Source: Dehalococcoidia bacterium
GTDB taxonomy: Bacteria > Chloroflexota > Dehalococcoidia > UBA2979
Length of the DNA: 64,000 bases
NCBI GenBank assembly: GCA_965262725.1
Contig: OZ253555.1
Location: 3,232,001 to 3,296,000, forward strand
Direction: 5' to 3'
In this document: one piece after another, positions 39,187 to 64,000 of the stretch
Numbering within the stretch: position 1 is the stretch's first letter
How the letters are laid out: the number at the start of each line of letters is the position of its first letter
Notes under the pieces: generated by a model
What the model was told of the DNA's origin: nothing
Databases searched by the model: none
The model's input: the letters and a program-made list of their open reading frames with translations, nothing else
Made by a program: the position numbers and the translations under genes

Positions 39187-39273
39187 CCCGCGACCGCTCG
39201 TGGCGGGCGAGGGTACCCGGTCCGGGGCGGCGTCATCCCGCCGGCCCCGCGCCTGACCCGGCCGATCTCCCCC

Positions 39274-39813: not shown

Positions 39814-39879
39814 CCGGCCCTCCCTTGCCCGATCCACGCGCCCGGATCCGGCACGGCCTGGTGCGCCCGGCCCGCCGCC

Positions 39880-40497: not shown

Positions 40498-40599
40498 GAA
40501 CCGGCTCCGTGTTCCCCGCCCCCGGGGCGGCGGCGCGTCTCCCCGGGCCCATGCTACGATGCGCCCGTCGACGGTCCTCCCCCGAGCCACCGGAGCCCG

Positions 40600-42264
40600 A
40601 TGGTCGAGCAGACCGACGTATCCGCCCCTGCGGATCGGATTCGCATCTCCGGCGACAACGAGGTGTCGACCTATCTGGAGATCGCCGAGGCGCGCGAGCC
40701 CGGCCAGCTCCTGACCCCGGCGCCCAACGCCCCCGAGGCGGTCGTCGTGGTCGACTACGGCTCGCAGTACTCCATGCTCATCGCCCGGCGCATCCGTGAG
40801 GCGAACGTCTACTCCGAACTCGTGCCGTGGCACGCGGGACCGGAGGCCCTGGCGCATCTGCGCGTCAAGGGTTTCGTGCTCTCCGGCGGCCCCGCCTCGG
40901 TCTACGCCCCGGGCGCTCCGTCCCTCCCCTCCTACGTGCTCGCCTCGGGGTTGCCGGTGCTCGGCATCTGCTACGGGATGCAGCTCTTGACCCACGCGCT
41001 CGGCGGGCGTGTCGCACCCTCCTCCTCGCGGGAGTACGGGCACGCCGTCATTACCGTCTCCGACCCGTCGAACCCGCTCCTCGACGGGCTCCCGGCCTCG
41101 CTTCCGGTCTGGATGTCGCACGGTGACCGCATCGTCGACCTGCCTCCCGGATTCCGCTCGATCGCGCACTCCGAGAACAGCCCCGTCGCTGCGATGGCGA
41201 ACGAGACGGGCTACCTCGGTCTGCAGTTCCACCCCGAGGTGGTACATACGCCCGAGGGCGATCAGCTGCTGCTCAACTTCCTCACCAACATCGCGGGCTG
41301 CGCCGGCGACTGGACGCCCGCCTCCTTCGTGGAGGAGTCCATAGCAACGATCGCCGACCAGGTGGGTACGGGGCGGGTCATCTGCGCGCTCTCCGGCGGC
41401 GTCGACTCGGCGGTGGCGGCGACGCTCGTCCACCGCGCCGTCGGCGACCAGCTCACGTGCATCTTCGTGGACAACGGCCTGCTGCGCGCCGAGGAGGCGG
41501 AGCGGGTCGTCTCGACGTTCCGCGAGCACATGGCGATCAATCTCATCCACCTCGAGGCCCAGGAGCGCTTCATCAGCGAGCTCGGCGGCATCACCGACCC
41601 CGAGCGGAAGCGCCGCCAGATCGGCGAGACCTTCATCCACGTCTTCGAGGAGGAGGCGGCGCGCCTCGGCGAGGTCGACTTCATCGTGCAGGGGACGACA
41701 TACCCCGACGTGATCGAGTCGGCCTCGACGGGTTCCGCGGCGGCGAAGATCAAGACCCACCACAACGTCGGCGGGCTCCCCCCCGATATGCGCCTCTCGC
41801 TCGTCGAGCCGCTGCGCAACCTCTTCAAGGACGAGGTGCGGCGCGCCGGCAAGGAGCTCGGTCTCGTCGACGAGATCGTCTACCGGCAGCCCTTCCCGGG
41901 CCCCGGCCTCGCGATCCGCGTGATCGGCGAGGTGACGACTGCGAAGCTCGACATCCTCCGCCGCTGCGATTGGATCGTGATGGACGAGGTGAAGCGCGCC
42001 GCCGTCTACTACGACCTGTGGCAGGCGTTCGCCGTGCTGACCGACACGCGCACGGTCGGCGTGCAGGGCGATCACCGCACCTACGGCTACTGCGTCGCGC
42101 TGCGCTGCGTGACGGCCGAGGATGCGATGACGGCCGACTGGGCGCGTCTCCCTTACGACCTGCTCGCTCGCATCTCCTCGCGCATCGTGAACGAGGTGCC
42201 GGAGGTGAACCGCGTCGTGTACGACATCACCTCGAAGCCGCCGGGCACGATCGAGTGGGAGTAG
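40600..42264 (+). CDS. guaA: GMP synthase (glutamine-hydrolysing)
   Basis: [42 protein letters not shown]. Confidence 0.97.
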
Positions 42265-46753: not shown

Positions 46754-47632
46754 ATGCTCGCGGGCAGCCCCTCCCCCCTGTCGGTCGAGGAGAGCTACGA
46801 GCGGTGCGCGGCGCTCGCCCGATCGCACTACGAGAATTTCACGGTCGCCTCCCGCTTCCTCCCCGTGGAGATGCGCAGGCACCTCTACGCAATCTACGCC
46901 TTCTGCCGGACCGTGGATGACCTCGGCGACGAGCATCCGGGCGACCGGATCCACGCCCTCGACCTCTGGGAGCAGGACCTCCTCCGGTGCTACGGGGGGA
47001 CGCCGCGTCACCCCTACCTGGCAGCCCTGAAGGCGACGGTCGCGCGCTTCGACATCCCCGAGGAGCCGTTCCTGCGGTTGATCGAGGCCAACCGCATGGA
47101 CCAGCGGGTGACCAGGTACCGCACCTACGGCGACCTCGAACGCTACTGCGAGAACTCGGCGAATCCGGTGGGGCGGCTCGTCCTCTACGTCAGCGGCTAC
47201 CGGGACGAACCGCGGCAACTCCTCTCGGACGCCACGTGCACGGCGCTGCAGCTCACCAATTTCTGGCAGGACATCGCCCGCGACCACGAGATGGGTCGCA
47301 TCTATCTCCCGCTCGCGGATCTGGAGCGCTTCGGCTACACCGAGCACGATCTCGACCGCCGCGTCGTCAACGACGCCTTCCGGGAGCTGATGGCGTTCCA
47401 GCTGGAGCGGACGCGGGCGCTCTTTCGCCGGGGTGGGGAGCTCCTCGAGACGCTCGACGGGTGCGTCAGGCTGGACGTGGCGCTCTTCTCCGCGGGTGGC
47501 CTCCGCGTGCTCGAAATGATCGAGGACCGAGGCTACGATGTCCTGAGCAGCCGTCCCGCCCTCTCGGGCACGGCGAAGCTCATCCTGATGGCGAAGACGC
47601 TCGCCAGGCTGAGCGTCCTGCGCAGGGTCTGA
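46754..47632 (+). CDS. hpnC: Hydroxysqualene synthase HpnC
   Basis: HYENFTVAS, YAFCRTVDDLGDE, SANPVGRLVL, LQLTNFWQD, GRIYLP. Confidence 0.9.
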   Translation: MLAGSPSPLSVEESYERCAALARSHYENFTVASRFLPVEMRRHLYAIYAFCRTVDDLGDEHPGDRIHALDLWEQDLLRCYGGTPRHPYLAALKATVARFDIPEEPFLRLIEANRMDQRVTRYRTYGDLERYCENSANPVGRLVLYVSGYRDEPRQLLSDATCTALQLTNFWQDIARDHEMGRIYLPLADLERFGYTEHDLDRRVVNDAFRELMAFQLERTRALFRRGGELLETLDGCVRLDVALFSAGGLRVLEMIEDRGYDVLSSRPALSGTAKLILMAKTLARLSVLRRV

Positions 47633-47643
47633 CGGGCGGTCGC

Positions 47644-48537
47644 ATGGACCCCGCCGAGCGACTCGATCTCAGGCAGGCGTACGATCACTGCCGGCTCATC
47701 ACCAGGACGCACGCGCGCAACTTCTACTACGCCTTCCTGACGCTGCCGGCGCCGAAGCGGCGCGCCATCTATGCGACGTACGCGTTCTGCCGGCTCTGCG
47801 ACGACATCGCCGACGATGACATTCCCGCTGCCAGAAAGCGGGAGATGTTCTCCGACACGAGGCGCCGCCTCGAGCGGATGCTCGAGGCGGACGCGGCCTC
47901 ACCACACCCGATCTTCGATGCCCTGGCCGACACCGCCAGGAGGTACGGGATCCCTGTCGGCTACTTCGAGGAGATACTCGAGGGCGTCGAGATGGACCTG
48001 ACCCAAAGCAGGTTTCGCACCTTCGACGAGCTGAAGGCCTACTGCTACAAGGTCGCCTCCGTCGTCGGCCTGGTGTGCATCGAGATCTTCGAGTACGACG
48101 ACGCGAGGGCCAGGGACTACGCGGTCGCCCTCGGCATCGGAATGCAGCTGACCAACATCATCCGGGACGTTCGGGAAGACGCCGACATGGGTCGGATCTA
48201 TATCCCCGCCGAGGAGATCGCGCTGTACGGCTACTCGGAGGCGGAACTCTTCCGGGGTGTGGTCAACGAGCCGTTCCTCCGGCTGATGAGATTCCAGGCG
48301 GACCGGGCCCGGGAGTACCTGCGCGAGGGACGGCGCCTGCTTCCGCTCCTGGCGGGCCGCTCCCGGGCCTGCCCGGCCGTGCTGCACGACATCTACAGCG
48401 CGGTGCTCGACCGCATCGAGGCGAGCGGCTTCCGGGTGTTCGAGGGGCGCATCGCGCTCAGCACGCGCGAGAAGCTCCTTATCATGGCCAGGACATGGAC
48501 GAGGACTATGCTGCCGCTCCCCGCCCGCGCTCCGTAG
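47644..48537 (+). CDS. hpnD: Presqualene diphosphate synthase HpnD
   Basis: NFYYAF, YAFCRLCDDIAD, YCYKVASVVG, QLTNIIRDV.ED, GRIYIP; lies between hpnC and hpnE. Confidence 0.88.
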   Translation: MDPAERLDLRQAYDHCRLITRTHARNFYYAFLTLPAPKRRAIYATYAFCRLCDDIADDDIPAARKREMFSDTRRRLERMLEADAASPHPIFDALADTARRYGIPVGYFEEILEGVEMDLTQSRFRTFDELKAYCYKVASVVGLVCIEIFEYDDARARDYAVALGIGMQLTNIIRDVREDADMGRIYIPAEEIALYGYSEAELFRGVVNEPFLRLMRFQADRAREYLREGRRLLPLLAGRSRACPAVLHDIYSAVLDRIEASGFRVFEGRIALSTREKLLIMARTWTRTMLPLPARAP

Positions 48538-49886
48538 CGGTCCTCGGCGGCGGGCTCGCCGGCCTCTCGGCGTCCCGCACCCTGATGGATCGCGGGCACC
48601 ACGTCACGCTCGTCGAGAAGCGCCGCTTCCTTGGCGGACGGGCCTTTTCGTTCTACGACGAGCAGGCCGGCTCGGAGGTCGACAACGGGCAGCATCTCTT
48701 CATGGGCTGCTGCGACTTCTACCTCGACTTCCTACGCTGGGCGGGCACGCGCGAGCAGGCGTACCTCCAGCCCAGCCTGCGGGTCGATGTCGTCCGCGAC
48801 GGCACGAGCGGGACGATCACGAGCACGCCCGGCCTCGGCCCGCTGCACGTTCTCCCGTCCTTCCTGCGCTACCCCCACCTGAGCGCCCGGGAGAAGCTGC
48901 TCGCGGCCTACGCGCTCCTGCGCATGAAGTACACCGACCGCGCCCGCCACCGGGAGCGGCTGGACGCGGAGAGCGCGTACGACTGGCTCAAGCGGCACCA
49001 CCAGAGCGAGCGGGCCATCGCCAACCTCTGGAACCTGATCATCCTGCCGACTCTGAACGACGACGCGCGAGAGGTCAGCGCGGAGATGGCCCTGATGGTC
49101 TTCCAGGCGGGGCTGCTCCGGACGCCGGCGGACGCCGCTCTCGGCTGGTCCCGGGTGGGCCTCACCGCGCTCGCCGGAACGCCGGCCCACGCTAGGCTCA
49201 GCTCCGGCGGGCACGACGTCCTCGTGGGCGAGACCGTGAGGTCCCTCCGCATCGACCGGGGTCGCGTCGCCGGCGTGGAGCTGGCCGGAGGACGGATCAT
49301 CGAGGCGGACGCGTACGTGAGCGCCCTGCCCTTCGACGTCCTGCTCGACGTTCTCCCGGCCGACGTGGCCTCCGATCCGTTCTTCTCCCGCGCACGCGGG
49401 CTGAGCTTCTCGCCGATAGTCGGCGTCCATCTCTGGTACGACAGGAAGGTCATGGACGGGGACTTCGTCGCCTTTCTCAACAGCCCCGTGCAGTTCGTCT
49501 TCAACAAGAGCGCGATGCAGAAGGCCCCCGCCCGGGACGGGCAGTACGTCTGCATCTCCCTAAGCGGCGCGTGGGAGTTCGCGGGCCTTCGCGCGGAGCG
49601 TCTGCGGGAGATCTTCTCCGGCGAGATGGAGCGGCTTTTCCCGAGGGCACGCGGAGCGCGGATCCGCCGCTACCGCGTCGTGAAGCAGGCGCAGGCGACC
49701 TTCCGTCCCCGGCCGGGGTCCGCCCGGTGCCGGCTCCCCCAGGCGACACCGATCCCCAATCTCTTTCTCGCGGGTGAATGGACTGACACCGGCTGGCCGT
49801 CGACGATGGAGGGGGCCGTGCGGAGCGGGGTGCTCGCCGCCGATCTCGCCGGTGGCGCTCTCCCAGCCGAACACCGCGCCAGCTGA
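48495..49886 (+). CDS. hpnE: Hydroxysqualene dehydroxylase HpnE
   Basis: GGGLAGL FAD motif, GGRA.S, VDNGQH, LAGEWT.TGWPSTMEGAVRSG. Confidence 0.9.
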   Translation: MDEDYAAAPRPRSVAVLGGGLAGLSASRTLMDRGHHVTLVEKRRFLGGRAFSFYDEQAGSEVDNGQHLFMGCCDFYLDFLRWAGTREQAYLQPSLRVDVVRDGTSGTITSTPGLGPLHVLPSFLRYPHLSAREKLLAAYALLRMKYTDRARHRERLDAESAYDWLKRHHQSERAIANLWNLIILPTLNDDAREVSAEMALMVFQAGLLRTPADAALGWSRVGLTALAGTPAHARLSSGGHDVLVGETVRSLRIDRGRVAGVELAGGRIIEADAYVSALPFDVLLDVLPADVASDPFFSRARGLSFSPIVGVHLWYDRKVMDGDFVAFLNSPVQFVFNKSAMQKAPARDGQYVCISLSGAWEFAGLRAERLREIFSGEMERLFPRARGARIRRYRVVKQAQATFRPRPGSARCRLPQATPIPNLFLAGEWTDTGWPSTMEGAVRSGVLAADLAGGALPAEHRAS

Positions 49887-50002
49887 CGTCGCCGCCACGC
49901 GGGCGGCGCCGCACAGCGGGGTCGGCGAGGGCTCGCCACGCTGGACGCGCATTTCCGGGCCATGCGACACTCTCCGTGGCGCGCACCGACTCCGAGGAGC
50001 TC

Positions 50003-50908
50003 ATGAAGGTCTATCTCGCCTCACCGCGTGGCTTCTGCGCAGGCGTTGACAGGGCGATCGAGATAGTCGAGATCGCGCTGAGGCGCTTCGGGGCACCCGT
50101 CTACGTCAAGCACCAGCTCGTGCACAGCCCGCACGTTGTCGGCGCCCTGGAGGCGAAGGGGGCGGTCACCGTCGAGGACGTTCGTGATATCCCGGAGGGG
50201 TCGAACGTCGTGTTCTCGGCGCACGGCTCGCCGCCGGATGACTTCGCGGTCGCCCGTGAGAGAAGGCTGAACGTCATCGACGCGACCTGCCCGCTCGTGA
50301 CCAAGGTGCACAACGAGGCGAAGAAGTACAGCCGCACGGGCCGCAACATCATCCTCGTCGGACACGACGGCCACCAGGAGGTGAAGGGGACGATGGGCCA
50401 GGCGCCGATGTTCTTCCTGGACGATCAGGACGGCGCCGGCCTGCCCGGATGGGACGAGGATTCCGAGGTTGCCGTGCTCACGCAAACGACGCTCTCGGTC
50501 GAGGACACGCGCCGCTCCGTCGAGGCGATCCGGGAGCGCTTCGCCAACACCATCGTCCGCGACGACATCTGCTACGCCACCACGAACCGCCAGGACGCCG
50601 TGAAGGCACTATGCGCCCGCGTGGACGCCGTCATCGTCGTCGGCTCGCAGCACAGCTCGAACTGCAACAGGCTGCGCGAGGTGGCCCAAGCCCATGGCAT
50701 CGCGGCGTACCTGATCGGGAGCCCCGAAGAGCTCGACCACGCCTGGCTGCGCGGTGTCGAGTCCGTAGGCGTCACCTCGGGAGCATCCACGCCCGATCAC
50801 CTCGTCCACGGGCTCATCGATGCGCTGGCGCCCGATGAGGTCGAGATCGTCCAGACCGCCGAGGAAGACGTGAGCTTCATCCTGCCGCGCGGGCTTCGCG
50901 AGACGTAG
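50003..50908 (+). CDS. ispH: 4-hydroxy-3-methylbut-2-enyl diphosphate reductase
   Basis: PRGFCAGV, SAHG, DATCPLV, QTTLS, ICYATTNRQ, SGASTP; RBS GAGGAG. Confidence 0.96.
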   Translation: MKVYLASPRGFCAGVDRAIEIVEIALRRFGAPVYVKHQLVHSPHVVGALEAKGAVTVEDVRDIPEGSNVVFSAHGSPPDDFAVARERRLNVIDATCPLVTKVHNEAKKYSRTGRNIILVGHDGHQEVKGTMGQAPMFFLDDQDGAGLPGWDEDSEVAVLTQTTLSVEDTRRSVEAIRERFANTIVRDDICYATTNRQDAVKALCARVDAVIVVGSQHSSNCNRLREVAQAHGIAAYLIGSPEELDHAWLRGVESVGVTSGASTPDHLVHGLIDALAPDEVEIVQTAEEDVSFILPRGLRET

Positions 50909-50977: not shown

Positions 50978-52429
50978 CTAGCTCGGGCCCGCCACCGGGA
51001 TGCTCAGCTCGTCGCGTGACCAGGGGCTGCCCGGAATGGACAGCATCTCGCGCAGTTCGCTCTCGAAGAAGAACTCGGATGCACCGAAGGCAGGCTCGAG
51101 CGCGTCGAGCCAGCTCGCGGTGTCGCTGTAACGCGCGAAGAAGGGGCGCCCGACCCAGTCGGGGTTGCGACCCTGCAGCATGCGCAGCGCGATCACGCGC
51201 TCGCCTGCGAACTCCGTGACGCCGAGCACCTGGACCTTCCCCGGCGTCGCCGACATGCTCGGCCCGCGAACCGTGCGCGAATTCCCCCCGACCGCGGCGT
51301 AGGCCTCGCGGAAGATCTCCCAGCACCGCACGAGCGGGAGCTCGAAGTAGCGCCGGGCGCCGGTGTCCCGCTCCACGAAGAGGTAGTACGGGATGCAGCC
51401 GAGCTGCGTCTGGAGCCGCCACATCTCGGCCAGCGTGCCCGCGTCGGCGTTGATGTGCCTGAGCAACGGCGTCTGCGTGCGGATCTGCGCCCCCGTCTCC
51501 CGGACCAGCCGGATCGCCTCCCGGACGATCGGCGTCTCCAGCTCGGTCGGGTGGCTGAAATGGGCCATGAGCGACAGCTGCCGACCGGAGTCGACGACCT
51601 CGCGGAAGAGTGCGAGCAGGTCCTCCGCGTCGTCGTCGGAGACGAAGCGGTGCGGCCAGTAGGCCAGGGCCTTCGAGCCGATTCGGATCGTCGTGATATT
51701 GGGAGCCGCACCGGGCTCAAGCAGCGGAGCAACGTAGCGGCGGAGCACCCGTGTCTTCATGATCAGCGGGTCGCCGCCCGTGAAGAGGATGTCCGACACG
51801 TCCGGGTGCACCTGCACGTAGTCACGCAGGAGGGAGGCCTCGCGCATCGCGAACTTCATCCCAGCGAGGCCGACGAACTGCGGCCAGCGAAAGCAGAACG
51901 TGCAGTAGGCGTGGCAGGTCTGGCCCTGGCTCGGGAAGAAGAGCACGGTCTCGCGGTACTTGTGCTGCATCCCGGGGAGCCGCTTCCCATCGAGGGACGG
52001 AGCGTTGTGGTCGAGCTGGCCGGCGGGGTGTGGATTGAGCGTCATGCGTATCTCGTTCGCCGCCGCCACGACCTCCTCGTGGGGGGCCTTCCGGTGCAAG
52101 AGGCCCTCGAGGCGAGCGTAGGCCTCCGGGGTGAGCATCTCGCGCTTGGGGAACGTGAGCCGGTACATGGGGTCGTCGGGGACCTTGCTCCAGTCGATCA
52201 GGTGATCCACGACGTAGCGATTCGACTTGAACGGGAGCACGTTGCCGACGACCTTGATTTCGTCGCGCAGCTCGGCGGGGAGGCTCGCGAGCTGCGGTAC
52301 CTCCTCGAAGTTGTGGATATTGATCGTCTCGTACGGCTCGTCCGCGTGTTGCTGGAGCGAGAGGGCTCCGCTCTCGCGGTGAGCGGTGTGATCCGAGTGT
52401 CGGGACGGACCGGCGTGGTGGATCGTCAT
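50978..52429 (-). CDS. KamA-family radical SAM/PLP amino-acid 2,3-aminomutase
   Basis: GMQHKYRETVL, CHAYCTFCFR (CxxxCxxC), LFTGGDPL, IRIGSK, HFSHP.EL, PYYLF, PGKV (candidate PLP lysine). Confidence 0.9.
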   Translation of the reverse strand: MTIHHAGPSRHSDHTAHRESGALSLQQHADEPYETINIHNFEEVPQLASLPAELRDEIKVVGNVLPFKSNRYVVDHLIDWSKVPDDPMYRLTFPKREMLTPEAYARLEGLLHRKAPHEEVVAAANEIRMTLNPHPAGQLDHNAPSLDGKRLPGMQHKYRETVLFFPSQGQTCHAYCTFCFRWPQFVGLAGMKFAMREASLLRDYVQVHPDVSDILFTGGDPLIMKTRVLRRYVAPLLEPGAAPNITTIRIGSKALAYWPHRFVSDDDAEDLLALFREVVDSGRQLSLMAHFSHPTELETPIVREAIRLVRETGAQIRTQTPLLRHINADAGTLAEMWRLQTQLGCIPYYLFVERDTGARRYFELPLVRCWEIFREAYAAVGGNSRTVRGPSMSATPGKVQVLGVTEFAGERVIALRMLQGRNPDWVGRPFFARYSDTASWLDALEPAFGASEFFFESELREMLSIPGSPWSRDELSIPVAGPS

Positions 52430-52499
52430 AGAACCCCCTGGTGCAAACGTCGCACATCCGACCTTGCACCCAGGCGGGCAAGAAGAGACATCGTCCCAA

Positions 52500-52626
52500 G
52501 TGCGCCTACGGGGTTAGCTGACGGGTTCGGCGCTTAGGTCGCCTACCGGCACCGCTCGCGGCTCCGGATTCACCCCAACTTCCTGGGTCCCCCGCCCCCG
52601 TCCCGGCGAGACGAGGTTCGGCACGT
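52500..52626 (-). promoter_or_regulatory. c-di-AMP riboswitch (ydaO/yuaA class)
   Basis: Minus strand: GCCGAACC...GGGGGACCCA...TTGGGGTGAATCC...GGTAGG...GAACCCGTCAGCTAACCCCGTAGGC, the ydaO consensus blocks in order; about 70 nt upstream of the aminomutase ATG. Confidence 0.88.
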
Positions 52627-52647
52627 CGCACCGTGCGGCGCCTTCAC

Positions 52648-52677
52648 ATTGGAGCAGTCCGCGGGCTCCGCCGTCAA
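52648..52677 (-). promoter_or_regulatory. Possible promoter for the riboswitch-aminomutase transcript
   Basis: Minus strand TTGACG-N18-TCCAAT with TG just upstream of the -10. Confidence 0.35.
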
Positions 52678-52746: not shown

Positions 52747-53514
52747 CTAGCGATCCGCGCCCGCCCGACCCAGGAAAACGTCGCGCAGGATGTCGCTCTC
52801 CTCAACAGAGCGGGGCGTGCCCTCGTAGGCGAGGCGCCCCCGATTGAGCACGTAGGCGCGGTCGACGATCTCGAGGACGCCCTTGATGTTGTGCTCGACG
52901 ATCAGGATCGTCGTCTGGAGCCGTTCGCTGATCTCGGCGACCGTCCGGAACACCTCCTTGACCACGATCGGCGCGAGACCGAGCGTGGGTTCGTCGAGCA
53001 GCAACACCTCCGGCCCGGCCATCAGCCCCCTCCCCAGGGCAAGCATCTGCTGCTGGCCGCCGGACATCTCGCTGGCCGAGTCCCTTCGCCTCTGCCGCAG
53101 GATGGGGAAGAGCGCCATCACCGACTCCATCCGGCGCTCCTTCTCCTCGGGATCGTGCACGTGCAGGCACCCCATCTCCAGGTTCTCTTCGATGGAGAGG
53201 TGCCCGAACACACGACGACCTTGAGGGACGTAGGCGATTCCCCGTCTCACGATCTCGTGGGTGGGGCCGAGGAGGCGATCCTCGCGCCAGTAGATCGCTC
53301 CCGAGACCACCGGCGCGAGCCCCATGATCGCCCTGAGCACGGTGGACTTCCCGGCCCCGTTGGGACCCAGCACGGCCACGACCTCGCCCTTCCGGACTCC
53401 CAGGGAGACGTCGTCGAGCGCGACGACCGACCGGTAGCGCACGGAGGTGCCGACCAGCTCCAGGAGCATCGACCCCGCCGCCTGGCCCCCGCCACGACTC
53501 CGCCGCACAGCCAT
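52747..53514 (-). CDS. Branched-chain amino acid-type ABC ATPase (LivF-like)
   Basis: GPNGAGKS, YVPQGRRVF, MSGGQQQM, LLLDEP. Confidence 0.93.
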   Translation of the reverse strand: MAVRRSRGGGQAAGSMLLELVGTSVRYRSVVALDDVSLGVRKGEVVAVLGPNGAGKSTVLRAIMGLAPVVSGAIYWREDRLLGPTHEIVRRGIAYVPQGRRVFGHLSIEENLEMGCLHVHDPEEKERRMESVMALFPILRQRRRDSASEMSGGQQQMLALGRGLMAGPEVLLLDEPTLGLAPIVVKEVFRTVAEISERLQTTILIVEHNIKGVLEIVDRAYVLNRGRLAYEGTPRSVEESDILRDVFLGRAGADR

Positions 53515-53539
53515 CGCGATCGCCTGCTCCCGCCGCCCG

Positions 53540-54292
53540 CTACAGCCCCAGGTAGGCGTCGATCACCTCGGGACGACTCAGGACCTCGCCCACCTCCCCC
53601 GCGGCGAGGAGCTCGCCGCTATGGAGCACGATCAGGTGATCGGTCAGCTCGCGCACGATATCCATGTTGTGCGAGACGAAGACGACCGTCCGCCCGTCAT
53701 CCCGCATCTCCCTGAGTATTCCCTTAACCCTCTCCAGCATCTCGGGAAAGAGCCCGGCGAACGGTTCGTCGAAGAGGTAGGTGTCCACCTCCATGGCGAG
53801 GGCGCGGCCGATCTCGAGGAGCTTCCTCTGCCCGTACGAGAGATCCATCGCCAGCGCACGGCGCTTCTCCCACATCCCGACCCGCTCGAGGATCTCGCGC
53901 GCCCTCTCCCGCCGGGCGCCCCGTCGCCGCTCGACGAGCGCCCACAGGAGGCGCCGCTCCGCCAGGACCACCAGGATGTTGTCCAAGACGCTGATCTGGT
54001 CGAAGAGCCGGATCTCCTGGAACGTGCGGGTGATGCCGTGGGATGGATTGTCGTACGCCTTCACGACCGTGAGGCCGACGCCGCCGATGACGACGATCCC
54101 TCCGTCCAGGCTCAGCGTGCCGCTCAGGAGGTTGATGAGCGTCGATTTCCCGGAGCCGTTGGGCCCGACGATGCTCGTCATGCCTCTCCGCGGAATGGAG
54201 AGGCTGAGCTCGTCGATCGCCTTGACTGCGCCGAAGCGCTTCGAGATCCCGATCGTCTCCAGCGCGGCCGCCGGACCCCCGGTGGCGCTCAC
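53540..54292 (-). CDS. Branched-chain amino acid-type ABC ATPase (LivG-like)
   Basis: GPNGSGKS, RTFQ, LSYGQRK, FDEP.AG, VIDAYLG. Confidence 0.93.
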   Translation of the reverse strand: MSATGGPAAALETIGISKRFGAVKAIDELSLSIPRRGMTSIVGPNGSGKSTLINLLSGTLSLDGGIVVIGGVGLTVVKAYDNPSHGITRTFQEIRLFDQISVLDNILVVLAERRLLWALVERRRGARRERAREILERVGMWEKRRALAMDLSYGQRKLLEIGRALAMEVDTYLFDEPFAGLFPEMLERVKGILREMRDDGRTVVFVSHNMDIVRELTDHLIVLHSGELLAAGEVGEVLSRPEVIDAYLGL

Positions 54293-55344
54293 AGCCTGTA
54301 CTTCCCGACCAGGCCCTGCGGCCGGAACAGCATCAACAGCACCAAGAGCACGCCCAGCACGGCCTGCCGGGCCTGGCCGATGGACTCGTTCGGAAGGAAC
54401 GGGACGAAGCGCATCCCCTCCTCGAGCAGGACGAAGGTCATCACCCCGAGCAGGGAGCCCCAGATCGTGGCCAGCCCGCCGAGGATGACGACGGAGACGA
54501 GAAGGATCGATTCCAGCAGCACGAAGGAGTACGGATCGACAAACCGCGCCCAGCTGCTGAACAGCCCGCCCGCGACCCCGGCCATCATCGCCGAGATCAC
54601 CCAGATCACGAACTTGTAGCGCGACACCCGATACCCGAAGACCTCGGTCGCGCGCTCATCCTCGCGTATCGCCAGCAGCACGCGGCCGAACGAGGAGGTT
54701 ACGACAAGCCACGACACGAGGGCGACGAGAGCAAGACAGAGAAGGGCGAATGCGAGGAACTCGGCGTCCGAGTCGAGCACCAACCCGCCCACCTCGGGCC
54801 TCGCGATGTCGTGGATGCCGAAGGCGCCCCTGGTCAGCTCAGTCCAGTTCAGGAAGACGTTGTAGCTGATCGTGGCGAAACCGAAGGTGACGAGCACGAA
54901 GATGTCGTCCCGGAAGCGGTTGAGCACGAGCCCGACCACGACCGCCGCGAGGCCTGCTGCGGCCGCACTGACGGGAAGCGCGGCGAAGAACGGCCACCCG
55001 AAGGTCGGGATGGCCTCCGTCCGGAGCTCCTCGTACGAGGTGCCGGAGGTGAGGATGGCCATCGCGTAGGCGCCGATGCCGAAGAATCCTACGTGCGCGA
55101 TCGAGAGCAGGCCCGTAAAGCCGACGACGAGATTAAGGCTGACCGCCAGGATCGCCCAGATCGCGAAGACGGTGCCCAAGGTCACGGCGAAGCCGGGGCC
55201 CTGCCACAGCAGGAACGCCGCCGCCCACGTGAGTATCACGAGGTTCGCCCACAGCTCGACGTTCCGCCCCTTCGCTGCGAGGAGCGCGGTCGGAACGCGC
55301 GTGGCCCCGACGATGCGCCGGAGGGGGTTCGTGCTCACGGCCAT
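54289..55344 (-). CDS. ABC permease (LivM-like)
   Basis: SLNLVVGFTGLLSIAH.GF, FGRVLLAIREDE, ILGGL, RPQGL. Confidence 0.92.
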   Translation of the reverse strand: MAVSTNPLRRIVGATRVPTALLAAKGRNVELWANLVILTWAAAFLLWQGPGFAVTLGTVFAIWAILAVSLNLVVGFTGLLSIAHVGFFGIGAYAMAILTSGTSYEELRTEAIPTFGWPFFAALPVSAAAAGLAAVVVGLVLNRFRDDIFVLVTFGFATISYNVFLNWTELTRGAFGIHDIARPEVGGLVLDSDAEFLAFALLCLALVALVSWLVVTSSFGRVLLAIREDERATEVFGYRVSRYKFVIWVISAMMAGVAGGLFSSWARFVDPYSFVLLESILLVSVVILGGLATIWGSLLGVMTFVLLEEGMRFVPFLPNESIGQARQAVLGVLLVLLMLFRPQGLVGKYRL

Positions 55345-55348
55345 CCCC

Positions 55349-56713
55349 CTAGCGCCTCGGCAGGAGGCCCGTGGGCCAGAACGAGAGGAAGAGAATCAGG
55401 ACGGCGAACGAGATCAGGTCCCTCCACTCGCCGGCGAGGTCCCAGATGCCGAACTGCTCGACCAAGCCCAGGGCGAACCCGCCGACCATCGCGCCGTAGA
55501 GATTCCCGATGCCGCCGACCACGGAGGCGATCCACCCCTTTATCAGCAGCAGGAGCCCCATCCGGGGCTGCACGGCGGTGTCGTGGCCGCTCAGCACGCC
55601 AGCCAGGGCGGCGAAGACCGCGCCGATGAAAAAGACGGTCGCGATCACGACCGTCGTGTTGATCCCGACGACCTTCGCCACCTCCTCGTCGTCGCCGACG
55701 GCGCGCACGGCCCTCCCGAAGGAGGTCGCGCTGAGGAGGAAGCGCAGGACGACGAGCCCGGCGATCGCCACCCCGATGGTGAAGAGGTTGAAGCCCTTGA
55801 TGCTCGCGCCGCCGATCACCTGCGGATCGCTGCCGAAGGCCTCCGGGAGCGGACGCGGCGCGCTCTGGAAGACCAGGGTGATGGCGGCGGTCGCGGCCAG
55901 CAGGACCCCCAGGGAGGCGACGAGCATGACGAGTGGCGAGTGGGCCCGCTCCCGCATGTAGATGTAGAGGCCCCGGTAGAGGGCGAGCCCGACCATTCCC
56001 GCCATCAAGCAGGAGACGGCCCAGCTCAGGTAGAGGCGCGAGCCCTCCTCGCCGGCGATCAGGAGCGCACAGTAGAGCCCCGCGATCCCCGATGCGGGCG
56101 CTGCCGCGGCGGCGAACGGCGCGAGGCCCCCGCGGGGGCGAAGGGAGCGGTAGGTCCGGTGGAGCGCCCAGGACGAGAGGAGCGCCACGGCCCCGCCCAC
56201 TGCCGGACTGAGCAGGACGTTGATCTCGCCGGGGAAGGCGAGGACGACGAGCGTGTAGAGGCCCGCGGCGGCGGAGACCACGCCCCCGGCGACGAGCAGC
56301 GTCGTCCGGCCGAACCGGCCCCGGAGCCGCCCGTAGAGCCAGGCGTGCAGTGTCCACGCCACCACCCCCGCGGTCACCGCGCCGAAGGCCACGTTGACGA
56401 ACGGGTTGTTCACCTCGTACTGCCCGCCGAGCGCCTCCTGGGACCTCAGGTAGAAGACCCCGTAGGCACCCATCGCCGCGGCCGCCCCGTAGGAGAGATC
56501 GAAGAACCACACGGTGCTGTAGACGACGGTGAATCCCATTGCGAGCAGCGCATAGACGGCGCCGACCGAGAGGCCGTTGAAGGTGAACTGCAGGGCCTGG
56601 TCCGGGGACTGGAGCACCTTCCACGAGACGTATCCGACCACCAGCGCCGCCAGCGCGATCGCCAGCGTCCGCTGATGGTCGCGGCGGCGGACGAACTGGT
56701 CCGGCAGCGGCAT
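55349..56713 (-). CDS. ABC permease (LivH-like) with an internal membrane insertion
   Basis: NGLSVGAVYALLAMGFTVVY, FGRAVRAV.DD, SVVGGIG, PTGL; 454 aa. Confidence 0.9.
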   Translation of the reverse strand: MPLPDQFVRRRDHQRTLAIALAALVVGYVSWKVLQSPDQALQFTFNGLSVGAVYALLAMGFTVVYSTVWFFDLSYGAAAAMGAYGVFYLRSQEALGGQYEVNNPFVNVAFGAVTAGVVAWTLHAWLYGRLRGRFGRTTLLVAGGVVSAAAGLYTLVVLAFPGEINVLLSPAVGGAVALLSSWALHRTYRSLRPRGGLAPFAAAAAPASGIAGLYCALLIAGEEGSRLYLSWAVSCLMAGMVGLALYRGLYIYMRERAHSPLVMLVASLGVLLAATAAITLVFQSAPRPLPEAFGSDPQVIGGASIKGFNLFTIGVAIAGLVVLRFLLSATSFGRAVRAVGDDEEVAKVVGINTTVVIATVFFIGAVFAALAGVLSGHDTAVQPRMGLLLLIKGWIASVVGGIGNLYGAMVGGFALGLVEQFGIWDLAGEWRDLISFAVLILFLSFWPTGLLPRR

Positions 56714-56848
56714 TCCTCACCCGCCCCGCACACAACGGCGCCCGCCGCCTCCGGCGGCCACGCCGACCCCGCGTCCCGATGCGACCCCGGGGTCGTCCCC
56801 ACCGTGCCGTCCCGGCGCTGGAGGCGTCCAGCGCCGCTCGAAGCGAAC

Positions 56849-58036
56849 TCAGTTCGTCGGGGCAGGACCCAGGACTTTGTAGCCGAAGTTCTCGTCGGTC
56901 CGCTCGGCGGTCGGGAGCACCTCCGCGACGATGTTCGTCAGCCCCACCACCTCGCCGTCCTCGTCGAAACTGTAACCCTGACCAATCGCGCCGCTCCACG
57001 TGATCTCGTAGAGGCAGTCCCGGAACCCGGCCGCGTCCTGGTCGTCGTTGGTCCTGCGGAGACACTCGGCGGTGATGTAGACGTCATCGTAGGCGGAGCC
57101 GACGTACCAGGGGAGCGTCACGTAGCCGTAGCGGTCCAGGAACCTTGTGAGCACCTCGGTGCCCCTCTCGTTAGCGGGATCGATGTCCGGCGTGATGACC
57201 TTCATACCCGTCGCTGCGTCGCCGGCGATCTGGAGCGCCGTCGTCCCGGCGGCGACCACCTCGCCGTAGATCGGTCCGCGGTAGCCGATCTCCCGCAGCT
57301 GCTTGACGATCGTCCCCCCCGCGAACTCGGACTGCGCGGCGACGTGGAGGGCGTCGGGGCCCGCCTCGACCAGCTTGGTCAGCTGAGTCCGGAAGTCGGT
57401 CGTGTCGGAGACGTATCGTTCAGCTCCGACCACCTCCCCGCCGAGCGTCTCGAACCGGGCGACGGTCGTTCGCCTCACGCCCTCGGCGTAGTCCGTCGCC
57501 TCCGTGATGGTCGCCAGGCGGCGGACCCCGTCGGCCCACATCACGTTGCCGGTGTCGATCCCCACCTGGGTGTCGCTGATCGCGGTCCGGAAGATGAAGT
57601 CCCCGGCACCCGCGATGTCCGGGTTCGTAGCCAGCCCGGAGAAGAGGACGACGCCGTCCTCCTCGGCGAGCGGCGCTGCGCCGAGCATCGCGCCGCTGCA
57701 CGACGTCCCGAGGATGATCTTCACGTCGTCGACGTCCGTCAGCTTGTGATAGGCCGTGATGGCGTCCTGTGCGTTGCACTTCTCGTCCTCGACGACGAGC
57801 TCCAGCGGACGCCCGTTGATGCCGCCCGCGGCGTTGATCTCGTCGACGGCCATCTGCTTCGCCTGCACCGACACCGTGCCGTACGTCTCCCCGGGACCGG
57901 TGACCGATTCCATCACGCCGACCCGGAACGGCTCCTCCCCGTCGCCCTCCTGATCGCTACCGCAGGCGATCGTCCCGCCAATCAGGAGCAGCGCACAGAC
58001 CAGCCACACCAGAGAGCGCCTCGTCAGGGTCCACAT
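56849..58036 (-). CDS. ABC substrate-binding lipoprotein (LivJ/LivK-like)
   Basis: TIAC lipobox, AVDEINAAGGINGRPLELVVED, FIFRT, DFRTQLTK; RBS GGAAGGAG. Confidence 0.92.
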   Translation of the reverse strand: MWTLTRRSLVWLVCALLLIGGTIACGSDQEGDGEEPFRVGVMESVTGPGETYGTVSVQAKQMAVDEINAAGGINGRPLELVVEDEKCNAQDAITAYHKLTDVDDVKIILGTSCSGAMLGAAPLAEEDGVVLFSGLATNPDIAGAGDFIFRTAISDTQVGIDTGNVMWADGVRRLATITEATDYAEGVRRTTVARFETLGGEVVGAERYVSDTTDFRTQLTKLVEAGPDALHVAAQSEFAGGTIVKQLREIGYRGPIYGEVVAAGTTALQIAGDAATGMKVITPDIDPANERGTEVLTRFLDRYGYVTLPWYVGSAYDDVYITAECLRRTNDDQDAAGFRDCLYEITWSGAIGQGYSFDEDGEVVGLTNIVAEVLPTAERTDENFGYKVLGPAPTN

Positions 58037-58213
58037 CGCACCGCTCCTTCCCGGGGACTGGCCACGCCTCCTCCAAATCCTAGCCCCGAGCCGCGGACGA
58101 TGGCGACTTCCACCACGGCGAATCTTTTCTAATTCGTAAGGATCGCCGTCTACCGTGAAGTGAGCGCGGGGCGATCGGCGCCCGCCGGCGGTGGTGTGAG
58201 GGACGGGACAGCC

Positions 58214-60040
58214 GTGCTGCATCAGCTTCGCGAGCTTCGTGCGCAGTGGCCCGGTGCTGTGGCAGGGGTGGTCGGCGCCGCGACGGCGCTGGCCATCGGC
58301 GATCTCGCGGCGCGCCTCCTCGAGGGGGCGTCGCTCATCGTCGCCATCGGCGACGTCATCATCGACCGCTCGCCGAGCGCCGTTACCGGCGCGGCGATTG
58401 AGATCTTCGGCACGAACGACAAGCCCGCTCTGATCGTCGGCATCATCGCCACCTCGCTGCTGCTCGGAGCCCTCCTTGGCATGCTCTCGATGCGCTCGCG
58501 CGCGATCGGCGTCCTGACCCTGGCGGCCTTCGCGTTCGTCGGCGGACTCGCCGCGGCCCACGATCCCCTCACCTCGGGCGCGCAGGCCTGGATCACGGCT
58601 GCCGCCGCCGGCGGTGCGGGCACCGCGGCGCTCCTCGGCCTGCTCCACCTATCCGCCGCGGCCGGCACGGCGGCCGACGACTCGTTCCCCGACCCGGCCG
58701 TGAAGCGCCTGGGGCGCCGGCGGTTCCTCTCCGTCGTCGGCGGCGGGCTGGCGGCGGCGGCGATCTCGGTGCCCCTCGGACGGCGTCTGATCGGACCGGC
58801 AGTCGACGTCGAGGCACAGCGGGCCGCCATCGTGCTGCCCCCGCCGAGTGCCTCCTCGCGGGCGCGGCCCCCGGCGACCCGGACCGCCCCGGCGCCCTCG
58901 GCGACCCCGGCAGCCGGCGGCACACCCGGCGTGGGAGCGACCGCGACGCCCGCCCCCACGCCGGCGGCGGCAGCCGAGTCCCCCGGCCCCGAGGCAACGG
59001 CGACCGGGACCGCGCCCGAGGCGACGCGCCAGCCCACCCCGGATCAGACGCCCGAGCCGACGCCCGAACCCACGCCCGCGCCCACACCCACGCCCGCGCC
59101 GGTCGTCCGCGGCCCCGAGGCAGTCCCGGGGATCTCGCCGCTCGTCACGCCGAACAGCGAGTTCTACCGGATCGATACGGCGCTCGCGGTGCCGCGCGTC
59201 GACAGCGCCCAGTGGCGGCTCCGGATCACCGGAATGGTCGACCGCCCGGCGGAGTTCACCTTCGACGACCTGCTCGCCATGAACCTCCGCGAGGAGTCAG
59301 TGACCCTCGCCTGCGTCTCCAACGACGTGGGCGGCAGCCTCGTCGGCAACGCCTACTGGCTTGGCGTCCCACTGCCCACGCTGCTGCGCGCGGCCGGCGT
59401 CCAGGCCGGAGCCTCGCAGGTGATCGGGCGCTCCGTCGACGGTTTCACCGTCGGCTTCCCGACCGACGTCGCGCTGGACGGGCGCGAGTCGATGGTCGTG
59501 GTCGGCATGAACGGCGAGCCCCTCCCGGCGGAGCACGGCTTCCCGGCCCGCCTGATCGTCCCGGGACTCTACGGCTACGTCTCGGCGACGAAATGGCTCG
59601 GTGAGATCGAGCTCTCCACGCTCGAAGGCTTCGACGCGTACTGGGTGCGGCGAGCGTGGGCCAAGGAGGCTCCGATCAAGCTCCAGTCGCGCATCGACGT
59701 GCCGGAAGCGGGCGGCGGGCTCAGGGCGGGCAACGTCCGCGTCGCCGGCGTGGCCTGGGGCGGTCTGCGGGGCGTGAGCGGCGTTCAGCTTCGGGCGAGC
59801 GATCTGGCAGGGGGTGCGCGTTCGCAGGAGGAGGGGTGGATCGGCGCCGTCCTCAGCGAGGAGCTCTCCGACAGCAGCTGGCGCCAGTGGGTCGTCGACT
59901 GGCCGGCCACCGCCGGAAGCTTCGAGCTCGAGGTCCGCGCGATCGATCGCAGCGGAGTGGTGCAGACCGCGCAGGTGCGGCCCAAGCAGCCGGACGGCGC
60001 CACCGGACACCACACGATCCGCGTCACCGTGAACGCGTAG
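58214..60040 (+). CDS. Membrane-anchored molybdopterin oxidoreductase (sulfite oxidase family)
   Basis: N-terminal TM bundle, internal GRRRFL, Pro/Thr linker, FYRIDTAL, TLACVSN (Mo-ligand Cys), HGFPARLIVPGLYGYVSATKW; start 58214 or 58160. Confidence 0.9.
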   Translation: MLHQLRELRAQWPGAVAGVVGAATALAIGDLAARLLEGASLIVAIGDVIIDRSPSAVTGAAIEIFGTNDKPALIVGIIATSLLLGALLGMLSMRSRAIGVLTLAAFAFVGGLAAAHDPLTSGAQAWITAAAAGGAGTAALLGLLHLSAAAGTAADDSFPDPAVKRLGRRRFLSVVGGGLAAAAISVPLGRRLIGPAVDVEAQRAAIVLPPPSASSRARPPATRTAPAPSATPAAGGTPGVGATATPAPTPAAAAESPGPEATATGTAPEATRQPTPDQTPEPTPEPTPAPTPTPAPVVRGPEAVPGISPLVTPNSEFYRIDTALAVPRVDSAQWRLRITGMVDRPAEFTFDDLLAMNLREESVTLACVSNDVGGSLVGNAYWLGVPLPTLLRAAGVQAGASQVIGRSVDGFTVGFPTDVALDGRESMVVVGMNGEPLPAEHGFPARLIVPGLYGYVSATKWLGEIELSTLEGFDAYWVRRAWAKEAPIKLQSRIDVPEAGGGLRAGNVRVAGVAWGGLRGVSGVQLRASDLAGGARSQEEGWIGAVLSEELSDSSWRQWVVDWPATAGSFELEVRAIDRSGVVQTAQVRPKQPDGATGHHTIRVTVNA

Positions 60041-62606: not shown

Positions 62607-64000
62607 CCCTGATCCACCGAAGAAGAGTGCGCGAGCGGCTGGGGTTGGGTGCTCCGCTGTAGCTGGGACAATGGTTTTTGACCGAATCACGTCACAGCCA
62701 CAGGGAGCACCCATTCGATGTTAGCAACGAGCAGCCCCGACCGGATACACATCGCCTTCGACGACGACCGCCTCGTGGACCACGCGGGCCTGCTGCTCCC
62801 GGCCACGCTCGCTGGCCGGCTCGGCCTCCGTGAACTGGCAGACGCCCACCTCGACCTCGGTGACGCAGCGGGGCGGGCGAACGTCGGCGACAAGCTGATG
62901 ACTCTCATCGCCTCGGCGCTCGCGGGCGGCGACTGCATCGATGACGCCGATGCCATGCGCTCAGGCGGCGCCGGGCGCGTGCTCGGCTGCACGGTGAAGG
63001 CGCCGTCCACCCTCGGGACGTTCCTGCGCAGCTTCCGCTGGGGCCACGTCCGCCAGCTCGACCGCATCAGCCGCGAGTTGCTGGCCCGCAGTTGGGCGGC
63101 CGGGGCGGGACCCGGCGCGGCGCCGTTCACGATCGACCTCGACTCGACGCTCTGCGAGACCTACGGACTGGCGAAAGAGGGCGCCCGGCACCACGGCTAC
63201 ACGGGCGTGCGCGGCTATCACCCGCTGCTCGCGGTGGCGGCCGGGACGGGTGAGGTGCTGATGGCCCGGCTGCGCGGGGGCCGTGCCAACACCGCTCGGG
63301 GGGCCGCCCACTTCCTGCGTGAGACGGTGGGCCGGGTGCGCGACGCCGGGGCGAGCGGGCAGCTCACGGTGCGCGCCGACAGCGGCTTCTACAACCACGC
63401 TGTCGTCGCCGTCTGTCGCAAGCAGGATGTCCGCTTCTCCATCACCATTCGCCAGCAGCCGAACGTACGCCGGCTGATCGAGGCGATACCGGAAGAGGAC
63501 TGGACGCCGATCCCGTACTGGCAGGACGACGGCGCCGCTGTCGCCGAGACGACCTACACGCCGTTCCAGCACACGAGGGACGCCACCGCGGTGCGGCTCA
63601 TCGTGCGGCGCGTCAAGCCGACGCCCGGCTCACAGCTCGCGCTCTTCGTGAACTACAGTTACCACGCCTTCATCACCGATCGCGCGGGGGAGATGATGGA
63701 GCTGGAGGCCGACCATCGCCGTCACGCCGAGATCGAGAACGCGATCCGCGACCTCAAGTACGGCGTCGGGTTGAACCATCTCCCCTCGGGCCGCTTCGCC
63801 GCGAACGCGGCGTGGCTCGCGGTGCAGGTGATCGCGCACAACCTCGCCCGCTGGACGGCACGCCTCGGGCTCGGCGAGGGGATCGTGACGACCAGGACGC
63901 TCAGGCGGCGCTACTTCTCTCTCGCCGGACGGCTCACCCACTCTGCCCGGCGGTGGACCCTGCACCTCCCGAAGCGCTGGCCCTGGGCCGGGCAGCTGGC
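62607..64000 (+). mobile_element. IS1380-family insertion sequence (right end beyond the window)
   Basis: Candidate left end ccctgatccaccga at 62607, followed by the transposase gene. Confidence 0.8.
62718..64000 (+). CDS. IS1380-family DDE transposase (3' end outside the window; absent from the ORF track)
   Basis: Open frame from ATG 62718: HAGL, APSTLGTFLR, TIDLDST, GYHPLL, VRADSGFY, HRRHAEIENAIRDLK, ANAAWL. Confidence 0.93.
   Translation, partial: MLATSSPDRIHIAFDDDRLVDHAGLLLPATLAGRLGLRELADAHLDLGDAAGRANVGDKLMTLIASALAGGDCIDDADAMRSGGAGRVLGCTVKAPSTLGTFLRSFRWGHVRQLDRISRELLARSWAAGAGPGAAPFTIDLDSTLCETYGLAKEGARHHGYTGVRGYHPLLAVAAGTGEVLMARLRGGRANTARGAAHFLRETVGRVRDAGASGQLTVRADSGFYNHAVVAVCRKQDVRFSITIRQQPNVRRLIEAIPEEDWTPIPYWQDDGAAVAETTYTPFQHTRDATAVRLIVRRVKPTPGSQLALFVNYSYHAFITDRAGEMMELEADHRRHAEIENAIRDLKYGVGLNHLPSGRFAANAAWLAVQVIAHNLARWTARLGLGEGIVTTRTLRRRYFSLAGRLTHSARRWTLHLPKRWPWAGQL

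Follow-up and report, generated by a model that had tools for sequence, protein, structure and literature searches.

The DNA analysed here, a 64 kb stretch of contig OZ253555.1 that we call the window, carries a full-length aptamer of the c-di-AMP (cyclic diadenosine monophosphate) riboswitch class and, on the same strand, a gene for a KamA-like radical S-adenosylmethionine (SAM) aminomutase that also uses pyridoxal 5'-phosphate (PLP). From the sequence and its relatives we infer a substrate and an osmolyte role for this enzyme; the whole, a c-di-AMP-repressed, one-gene route from glutamate to the osmolyte beta-glutamate, we consider to have a probability of about 0.55.

A c-di-AMP riboswitch upstream of a KamA-like gene in Chloroflexota

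When the whole window was searched with Rfam cmscan, RF00379 was the sole riboswitch match, reaching 81.4 bits against a gathering score of 38 (E 2.2e-17) and covering the model untruncated (positions 1-134 of 134). Our own aptamer model (R1), built from seven aptamers found upstream of orthologues, scored the same element at 129.4 bits. In an alignment of 14 aptamers from these loci, which was fitted to our own model and thereby favours the structure, 95.2% of the cells were paired and 17 of the 27 pairs had changed on both sides; none of 500 shuffles reached as high a value, and partners that had been slid along were only 35-50% paired. The 3' tail of the aptamer, which agrees with the purine-rich tail conserved in the Rfam consensus, could form a duplex of 7 bp (-8.4 kcal/mol) with a segment near the 5' end, a candidate for the pseudoknot expected of the RF00379 class. 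The aptamer is almost certainly real and a new member of a known riboswitch class. A preliminary description of this DNA had placed a full ydaO-type aptamer about 70 nt upstream of the gene and proposed a covariance-model search; that search bears out the aptamer and its upstream position, whereas the spacing between the last aptamer model position and the ATG is 58 nt.

The same description had suggested a survey of the regions upstream of this clade. We fetched 80 loci encoding relatives, one per species, of which 21 were Chloroflexota by record title and 59 came from other phyla (L numbers denote individual loci). In 11 of the 21 Chloroflexota loci, RF00379 reached at least its gathering score on the same strand, at a distance of 27-259 nt ahead of the homologous coding region (L002, L003, L005, L010 and L016, five of 13 scanned, and L020, L021, L026, L027, L060 and L065, six of eight scanned). 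Our own model detected no upstream aptamer in any of the 59 other loci (0/59), and Rfam found none in the 13 that it scanned of the 40 non-Chloroflexota bacterial loci, the remaining 46 non-Chloroflexota loci having been examined with our own model only. The Chloroflexota proteins fall into three separate branches of a FastTree tree, and each of these includes genes that carry the riboswitch (2/2, 5/13 with the window counted, and 5/5). The association of riboswitch and gene is conserved and under selection, only in Chloroflexota.

L001, L004 and L006-L009 were rescanned with Rfam at E<=1 and again yielded no aptamer. Weak matches to our own model at the usual aptamer position in L009 (4754-4891, 26.3 bits) and L004 (4766-4891, 15.2 bits) were discarded because Rfam gives nothing there at that threshold; both sites may be decayed aptamers. 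Two positive loci carry a second c-di-AMP riboswitch pointing the opposite way by Rfam (L016:4400-4532, minus strand, 56.9 bits; L065:4389-4523, minus strand, 60.9 bits). It precedes a class-III aminotransferase gene resembling glutamate-1-semialdehyde aminomutase (330-350 bits, below the cut-offs), which is followed by a CMD-family gene, so that the two riboswitch-controlled units form a divergent pair. A gene for a LysM and M23 peptidase lies on the same strand about 270-320 nt after the KamA-like gene in L021 (6599-7768), L027 (6760-7902) and L065 (6661-7803); as cell-wall hydrolases are classic c-di-AMP riboswitch targets, its co-transcription is possible.

The KamA-like gene in the window is monocistronic, as had been proposed. 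Its downstream neighbour is a convergent ispH, and its upstream neighbour on the same strand is a separate five-gene Liv/Urt-type ATP-binding cassette (ABC) transporter, whose last ATPase gene ends 114 nt ahead of the riboswitch (Table 1). The transporter is not conserved beside orthologues, so read-through into the riboswitch unit is possible but unsupported. A promoter-like pair of hexamers would give the unit its own promoter, with a transcript starting a few bases before the aptamer; our consensus promoter scan did not call this pair because it requires an A at position 2 of the second hexamer. The genes in the window and in L002, L003, L005, L026 and L060 have unrelated neighbours, which fits a one-gene unit. 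Pfam and NCBIfam scans of the neighbours also confirmed the earlier statement that no ablB-type acetyltransferase, efp/epmA or lysine-fermentation genes adjoin the window gene.

Elsewhere in the window, hopanoid/isoprenoid genes lie directly downstream. A 1212-residue open reading frame (ORF) has no Pfam match in its first 700 residues, and may be either an over-extended ORF in GC-rich DNA or a fusion with an unknown domain. A transposase gene and two divergent tRNA genes were also found.

Table 1. Coordinates of the features discussed (window positions unless a locus is named).
Feature	Position	Strand	Basis or detail
KamA-like radical SAM/PLP aminomutase gene (P0001)	50978-52429	-	483 aa, ATG start
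Promoter-like pair TTGACG (52677-52672), 18-nt spacer, TCCAAT (52653-52648)	52648-52677	-	read from sequence
c-di-AMP riboswitch aptamer (ydaO/yuaA type), full length	52488-52633	-	Rfam RF00379
3' tail GGGACGA, candidate pseudoknot with UCGUCUC in the P2 region near the aptamer 5' end	52490-52497	-	duplex
Expression platform: sequestor hairpin, 5' arm GCCC.GCCUGG.GUGCAA pairing UUGCACCAGGGGG, covering the ribosome-binding site	52433-52479	-	folding
Ribosome-binding site AGGGGG, 4 nt before the ATG at 52429	52434-52439	-	sequence
ispH	49976-50908	+	convergent
hpnC, hpnE and ispH (hopanoid/isoprenoid genes)	46754-50908		hpnC 322 bits, hpnE 382 bits, both above cut-off
Liv/Urt-type ABC transporter	52747-58645	-	binding protein, two permeases, two ATPases
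1212-aa ORF	38626-42261	+	GMP synthase domains only in residues 707-1211
DDE transposase (DDE_Tnp_1_4)	62718-63998	+	reaching the window end
tRNA gene	13863-13935	-	Rfam
tRNA gene	14238-14309	+	Rfam
Archaeal neighbour examples (MscS-like channel / glutamine synthetase contexts)	L033:3067-4803; L036:6391-7833	-; +	

Family, substrate pocket and relatives of the enzyme

The best NCBIfam match of the enzyme is the KamA family (TIGR00238), at 109.1 bits against a cut-off of 199.2. The cut-offs were likewise not reached for the lysine 2,3-aminomutase (LAM) AblA (TIGR03820, 75.6 bits, cut-off 525.4), EpmB (TIGR03821, 82 bits, cut-off 369.3), the arginine 2,3-aminomutase BlsG (TIGR04468, 85.2 bits, cut-off 600) and the glutamate 2,3-aminomutase Eam (TIGR04368, 58.5 bits, cut-off 650), and Pfam gave no match to the 483-residue protein at E<=1e-3. 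By sequence, the sole match in the PDB is the lysine 2,3-aminomutase 2A5H (E 1.7e-18). An AlphaFold model computed from a 16-sequence alignment (mean predicted local distance difference test 76.6, predicted template modelling score 0.80) also has 2A5H as its best structural match (E 2e-16, template modelling scores 0.56/0.65), followed by generic radical SAM enzymes. The cysteines of the CxxxCxxC motif (C172, C176 and C179) and the PLP lysine (K398) are invariant in all 16 sequences and align with those of AblA and KamA, and Arg181 after the cluster motif is conserved. The gene product is very probably a PLP/radical SAM aminomutase. Its earlier placement in the KamA family thus holds for motifs, fold and best model, but not for the score.

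The family is very large (8000 scored matches) and highly conserved, and the tight clade around the window enzyme is 55-90% identical overall and 55-62% between Chloroflexota, Bacteroidota, Pseudomonadota and Nitrososphaerota. A library reduced to 50% identity contains 318 representatives with matches at E<=1e-30. Among the best 150 we looked for canonical Eam, AblA and EpmB, but all 150 belong to the extended family, and none of 34 wider-family representatives scanned reached any NCBIfam cut-off, that of TIGR00238 included; the annotated plasmid records from which the reference enzymes were taken contained no Eam. In a FastTree tree, which has local support without bootstrap and in which long branches were flagged, a long branch, locally supported at 100%, lies between the 97 family rows and the reference enzymes AblA (Ilyobacter), BlsG (Xenorhabdus) and EpmB (Klebsiella), IdnL4 and clostridial Eam being outside the sampled set. 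The sources name the homologues 'lysine 2,3-aminomutase', as does the ESM Atlas ('lysine 2,3-aminomutase / KamA family'), and these names are automatic. Judged by its sequence, the enzyme is a separate KamA-like clade and not a lysine 2,3-aminomutase, EpmB or clostridial Eam equivalog. The preliminary description had regarded clustering with EpmB or fermentative KamA, together with a lack of osmotic regulation, as fatal to its proposal; the enzyme belongs to neither group and branches apart from AblA and EpmB. One member of the family is a domain of an 882-residue protein (P0126), in which it is fused to an N-hydroxylating monooxygenase-like domain (TIGR04439-like, 259 bits, below cut-off).

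The substrate pocket differs from that of the characterised enzymes. In a MAFFT alignment, the Asp column of AblA, Bacillus KamA, BlsG and EpmB (QCD, HCD, VLD) is occupied across the tight clade by Arg354, within an invariant RD-TGA motif (RN in two Ignavibacteria), and Ser391 (RGPSMSATPGK) takes the column of the second Asp found in AblA and KamA (VxDAPGGGGK). In LAM, the lysine epsilon-ammonium is reportedly held by two Asp residues, which we take to be Asp293 and Asp330, and the clostridial glutamate 2,3-aminomutase is said to have Lys332 and Asn369 at those positions. The change from Asp to Arg argues against a cationic side chain of the substrate and for an acidic one.

A relative with 52% identity (E 3e-159) is encoded in a Streptomyces type I polyketide synthase (PKS) cluster (L088, among the annotated plasmid records). 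Its neighbours there are a VinJ-like hydrolase (best PDB match 3WMR, E 1.9e-143), a PLP enzyme of the aspartate aminotransferase fold, and an enzyme that adenylates beta-amino acids, matched best by 5JJQ (E 6.5e-185), HitB entries and 5JJP (E 1e-170 to 6.5e-185); we take 3WMR, 5JJQ and 5JJP to be VinJ, IdnL1 and CmiS6. By its layout, the cluster would be a gene set of the incednine pathway, with our relative in the slot of IdnL4. The radical SAM enzyme IdnL4 is held responsible for the conversion of L-glutamate to beta-glutamate on the strength of gene disruption, beta-glutamate was identified as an intermediate by feeding, and the PLP-dependent IdnL3 decarboxylates it in the next step (PMC11284099). 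The pocket changes and the IdnL4-like relative most likely point to beta-glutamate over beta-lysine, and we put the identification of beta-glutamate as the product at slightly better than even. The enzyme would then convert L-glutamate to beta-glutamate in one step, with no further modification, and the product would accumulate as an anionic compatible solute and counter-ion of K+.

PLP genes also accompany the family elsewhere. Loci of Bacteroidota and Ignavibacteriota have a gene for a PLP enzyme of the aspartate aminotransferase fold downstream of the KamA-like gene and overlapping it (L015, 5330-6676; L018, L025, L047, L049, L059, L068 and L076), and in L038 and L063 such a gene is divergent from it. 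The L015 enzyme is 29% identical over 419 residues (E 7e-58) to the L088 enzyme at the position of IdnL3, the beta-glutamate decarboxylase, and carriers of this partner may make 3-aminobutyrate instead of stopping at beta-glutamate. Rhodococcus plasmid relatives (L083) stand beside genes for a SidA/IucD-type monooxygenase and an ATP-grasp enzyme. Genes for a Glu/Leu/Phe/Val dehydrogenase, a coenzyme A (CoA)-transferase, a MaoC dehydratase and a CoA-ester lyase surround the relative on a plasmid of Amycolatopsis sp. AA4 (L082, 3002-15206), and methylmalonyl-CoA-mutase-like and family III CoA-transferase genes lie downstream in the Dehalococcoidia loci L008 and L010-L012; these contexts look as if a beta-amino acid were put to catabolic or CoA-linked use.

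Osmotic context and alternatives for the product

Near the KamA-like gene, 18 of the 19 Nitrososphaerota loci have a gene for an MscS-like channel, mostly divergent and within 300 nt upstream; this call was made with Pfam on one representative (MS_channel_2nd, E 9e-9), to which the others were joined by BLAST clustering. A type I glutamine synthetase gene (GlnA; TIGR00653, 508 bits, above cut-off) follows directly downstream in 10 of the 19. For the 40 other bacterial loci, we scanned 128 of the 133 flanking ORFs, five long ORFs being left out, and found at least one neighbour with a function in ion transport or osmolyte synthesis in nine. These neighbours comprise MscS (L022, L024), Na+/H+ exchangers (L013, L022, L067), Na+/Ca2+ exchangers (L013, L029), CLC channels (L031, L064, L068), an SLC12 transporter (L075), a P-type cation ATPase (L013) and a sucrose-phosphate synthase/phosphatase (L022). 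A universally conserved neighbour was sought and does not exist; the partners are lineage-specific.

Beta-glutamic acid is the most abundant identified metabolite of Nitrosopumilus maritimus SCM1, at 730 mM, and beta-glutamate rises with depth in the ocean (Heal et al., PMC8269262). Taken together with the riboswitch, these contexts make it probable that the gene serves osmoadaptation. The preliminary description had proposed a one-gene, c-di-AMP-gated pathway to an unmodified beta-amino-acid osmolyte; the recurrence of the riboswitch and the osmotic and ion-transport neighbours strengthen this proposal, whereas its beta-lysine option fares worse, the pocket and the IdnL4-like relative favouring beta-glutamate.

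The enzyme might act instead on another amino acid, such as glutamine, 2-aminoadipate, alanine or a derivative, with the product still an osmolyte or stress metabolite under c-di-AMP control. Glutamate was deduced only from two pocket columns and from context, and Arg354-Asp355 could bind an amide or zwitterionic side chain. The glutamine synthetase gene downstream in the archaeal loci raises the possibility of a beta-glutamate/beta-glutamine pair, an aspartate decarboxylase gene (beta-alanine) adjoins the KamA-like gene in L055 and L064, and aminotransferases are common partners. Against this, the IdnL4-like cluster points to glutamate, a basic residue in place of Asp fits an acidic side chain, and the solute measured in N. 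maritimus was beta-glutamate, not beta-glutamine (PMC8269262). We regard a different substrate as unlikely, although it deserves to be kept in view.

It is improbable, in our estimate, that the beta-amino acid is a building block for a secondary metabolite or the cell envelope and not a bulk osmolyte, with c-di-AMP control reflecting cell-wall homeostasis. Relatives of about 50% identity do occur in PKS, nonribosomal peptide synthetase (NRPS) and ATP-grasp clusters, c-di-AMP riboswitches often control cell-wall enzymes, and the LysM-M23 peptidase gene follows the KamA-like gene in three riboswitch-bearing loci (L021, L027 and L065). No biosynthetic cluster, however, surrounds the gene in the window or in L002, L003, L005, L026 and L060, ion-channel and exchanger neighbours recur, and the high identity across four phyla suggests a housekeeping-type function.

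Switching, overall reading and comparison with known systems

The hairpin noted earlier (ctgggtgcaa...ttgcaccag, at about 52474-52437) does run into the ribosome-binding site (RBS; 52439-52434). Folded alone, the 58-nt platform forms an extended stem with a minimum free energy (MFE) of -31.9 kcal/mol, in which the whole G-run of the RBS is paired. When the 3' strand of the aptamer is added to the fold, UAGGCGCA pairs with UGCCCGCCU instead, taking away the C-rich arm. Neither the sequence nor a scan revealed a U-tract after the hairpin or a terminator-like site between the aptamer and the ATG. The translational control at which the preliminary description had hinted is likely, given the paired G-run in the platform fold and the missing U-tract. 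In five orthologous leaders (L016, L021, L026, L027 and L065), a strong GC hairpin is present, followed in four by a U-rich run, and in all five the RBS is directly preceded by a CCUCUC-type element with complementarity to the aptamer tail GGAGAGGC.

These leaders would share one logic, in which a C-rich element pairs either with the released 3' end of the aptamer, leaving the gene on, or with the RBS, turning it off. In the window, an aptamer bound to c-di-AMP would keep its own 3' strand and tail, so that the C-rich element GCCCGCCUGG would be free to pair with the RBS and the gene would be silent. At low c-di-AMP, a state linked to osmotic or K+ demand, GCCCGCCUGG would pair with the released aptamer 3' strand, the RBS would open and the enzyme would be made. 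As predicted from these pairings, the riboswitch would respond to its ligand as an OFF switch on translation.

The opposite arrangement, in which c-di-AMP binding activates the gene, or an action on transcription or through Rho, has little probability in our view. The unconstrained MFE structure of the whole leader does pair the CCCC stretch of the aptamer with the G-run of the RBS, which gives ON logic, and the five orthologous leaders have terminator-like hairpins. That whole-leader fold, however, is no better than shuffles (z = -0.5), for which reason our switching model rests on local pairings; the local alternatives fit OFF logic, the window has no U-tract, and the c-di-AMP riboswitch before ablA of Dehalobacter is an OFF switch (PMC9337991).

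Several observations weigh against a c-di-AMP-repressed route to beta-glutamate. Ten of the 21 Chloroflexota loci have no aptamer, among them L001, the nearest relative of the window, and a Pfam scan of 48 window ORFs turned up no diadenylate cyclase. The whole-leader fold neither exceeds its shuffles nor has the OFF polarity. On the enzyme side, the Eam model is the weakest of six NCBIfam matches, below the lysine, arginine and EpmB models (75-85 bits), and actinomycete relatives have Val at the Ser391 position. Nor is the wider family uniform, because other relatives stand in NRPS, ATP-grasp/N-monooxygenase or CoA-pathway contexts. The activity of IdnL4 was not obtained in vitro (PMC11284099). 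The osmotic-neighbour counts have no background to be set against, and the named Nitrosopumilus carriers of the gene are N. koreensis AR1 and Nitrosopumilus sp. K4, the 730 mM having been measured in N. maritimus SCM1. For methanogens, an older review reports nuclear magnetic resonance evidence that speaks against the formation of beta-glutamate by a glutamate aminomutase (PMC1224877); the aminomutase route is therefore not universal, though these are other organisms.

A broader proposal, which we hold only tentatively and at somewhat less than even odds, is that the clade may be the beta-glutamate synthase both in marine ammonia-oxidising archaea and in numerous Chloroflexota, Bacteroidota and Pseudomonadota, an IdnL4-type enzyme whose specificity was gained apart from clostridial Eam, and that in Chloroflexota c-di-AMP would gate an anionic, K+-balancing solute. 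Spread widely through several bacterial phyla, the family goes under the wrong label of lysine 2,3-aminomutase and lacks a curated model, and it occurs in many Nitrosopumilaceae genomes beside a mechanosensitive channel, where relatives may explain the large beta-glutamate pool. In Chloroflexota, the riboswitch marks the gene as part of the osmotic regulon. The proposal, if true, would lead to the re-annotation of a large family, give a major marine metabolite its genetic marker, and extend the c-di-AMP regulon from osmolyte uptake to the de novo synthesis of an anionic solute, tying c-di-AMP in Chloroflexota to both halves of the K+/glutamate pair.

A literature search outside subscription journals returned no paper that names the gene for beta-glutamate synthesis in ammonia-oxidising archaea or connects an aminomutase, of this clade or another, with the compound there, and none of the papers returned on c-di-AMP riboswitches and aminomutases dealt with Chloroflexota. 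The pairing itself, which the preliminary description could not say had been reported, is less novel than it seemed: kamA and dapB are stated to be known c-di-AMP riboswitch targets (Weinberg et al. 2017, PMC5737381), a c-di-AMP riboswitch terminates transcription in vitro before ablA of Dehalobacter sp. CF, and Na+ riboswitches precede ablA and eam (White et al. 2022, PMC9337991). A riboswitch-gated aminomutase for a beta-amino-acid osmolyte is, in view of these two papers, of a known kind. The Dehalobacter system shares with the window its aptamer class and the switching-off of a radical SAM 2,3-aminomutase at high c-di-AMP. It differs in that its gene is called ablA (lysine to beta-lysine), its host is a Firmicute, and its riboswitch acts by a transcription terminator and stands in tandem with a preceding Na+ riboswitch, whereas the window has a single aptamer, no U-tract, a sequestered RBS, a Chloroflexota host and an enzyme of another clade, its pocket changed (the Dehalobacter gene being taken by its ablA name).

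That the window enzyme is the lysine 2,3-aminomutase of the database names, making beta-lysine for N-acetyl-beta-lysine or another use, is very improbable: the sole solved relative is a LAM and published c-di-AMP riboswitch targets include kamA/ablA (PMC9337991, PMC5737381), but the names are automatic, the score is 75.6 bits against a 525-bit cut-off for TIGR03820, the Asp columns hold Arg354 and Ser391, the long branch parts the family from AblA, BlsG and EpmB, and neither in the window nor in most loci does an ablB-type acetyltransferase adjoin the gene. Like KamA/AblA (2A5H), the enzyme has the CxxxCxxC motif followed by an Arg, a PLP lysine towards the C-terminal end of the barrel, and the same general fold; it differs in an identity of only about 21%, in both pocket replacements (Asp to Arg354, Asp to Ser391), in the lack of an ablB partner, and in an extra N-terminal region of about 140 residues and a C-terminal beta domain. 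EpmB/YjeK has the superfamily core in common with the window enzyme, which in contrast has no efp/epmA nearby, does not conserve the Asp column and lies on a separate branch.

Eam of Clostridioides difficile would catalyse the same proposed reaction, and both enzymes would have a basic residue in place of the first LAM Asp. The window enzyme, with 58.5 of the 650 bits required, is not that equivalog, and if it does catalyse the same reaction, the specificity arose on a separate branch. The likeness to IdnL4, drawn from cluster layout, lies in the 52%-identical Streptomyces protein with its IdnL1-, IdnL3- and VinJ-like partners; IdnL4 contributes to a polyketide starter unit, with a decarboxylase acting next, whereas the window gene stands alone under a riboswitch. 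Collectively, the riboswitch side of the system is known, and the enzyme clade and the link to beta-glutamate appear to be new. What probably sets it apart from the known systems is an uncurated, mislabelled clade with a changed pocket, a probable supply of unmodified beta-glutamate from a single gene, and RBS sequestration.

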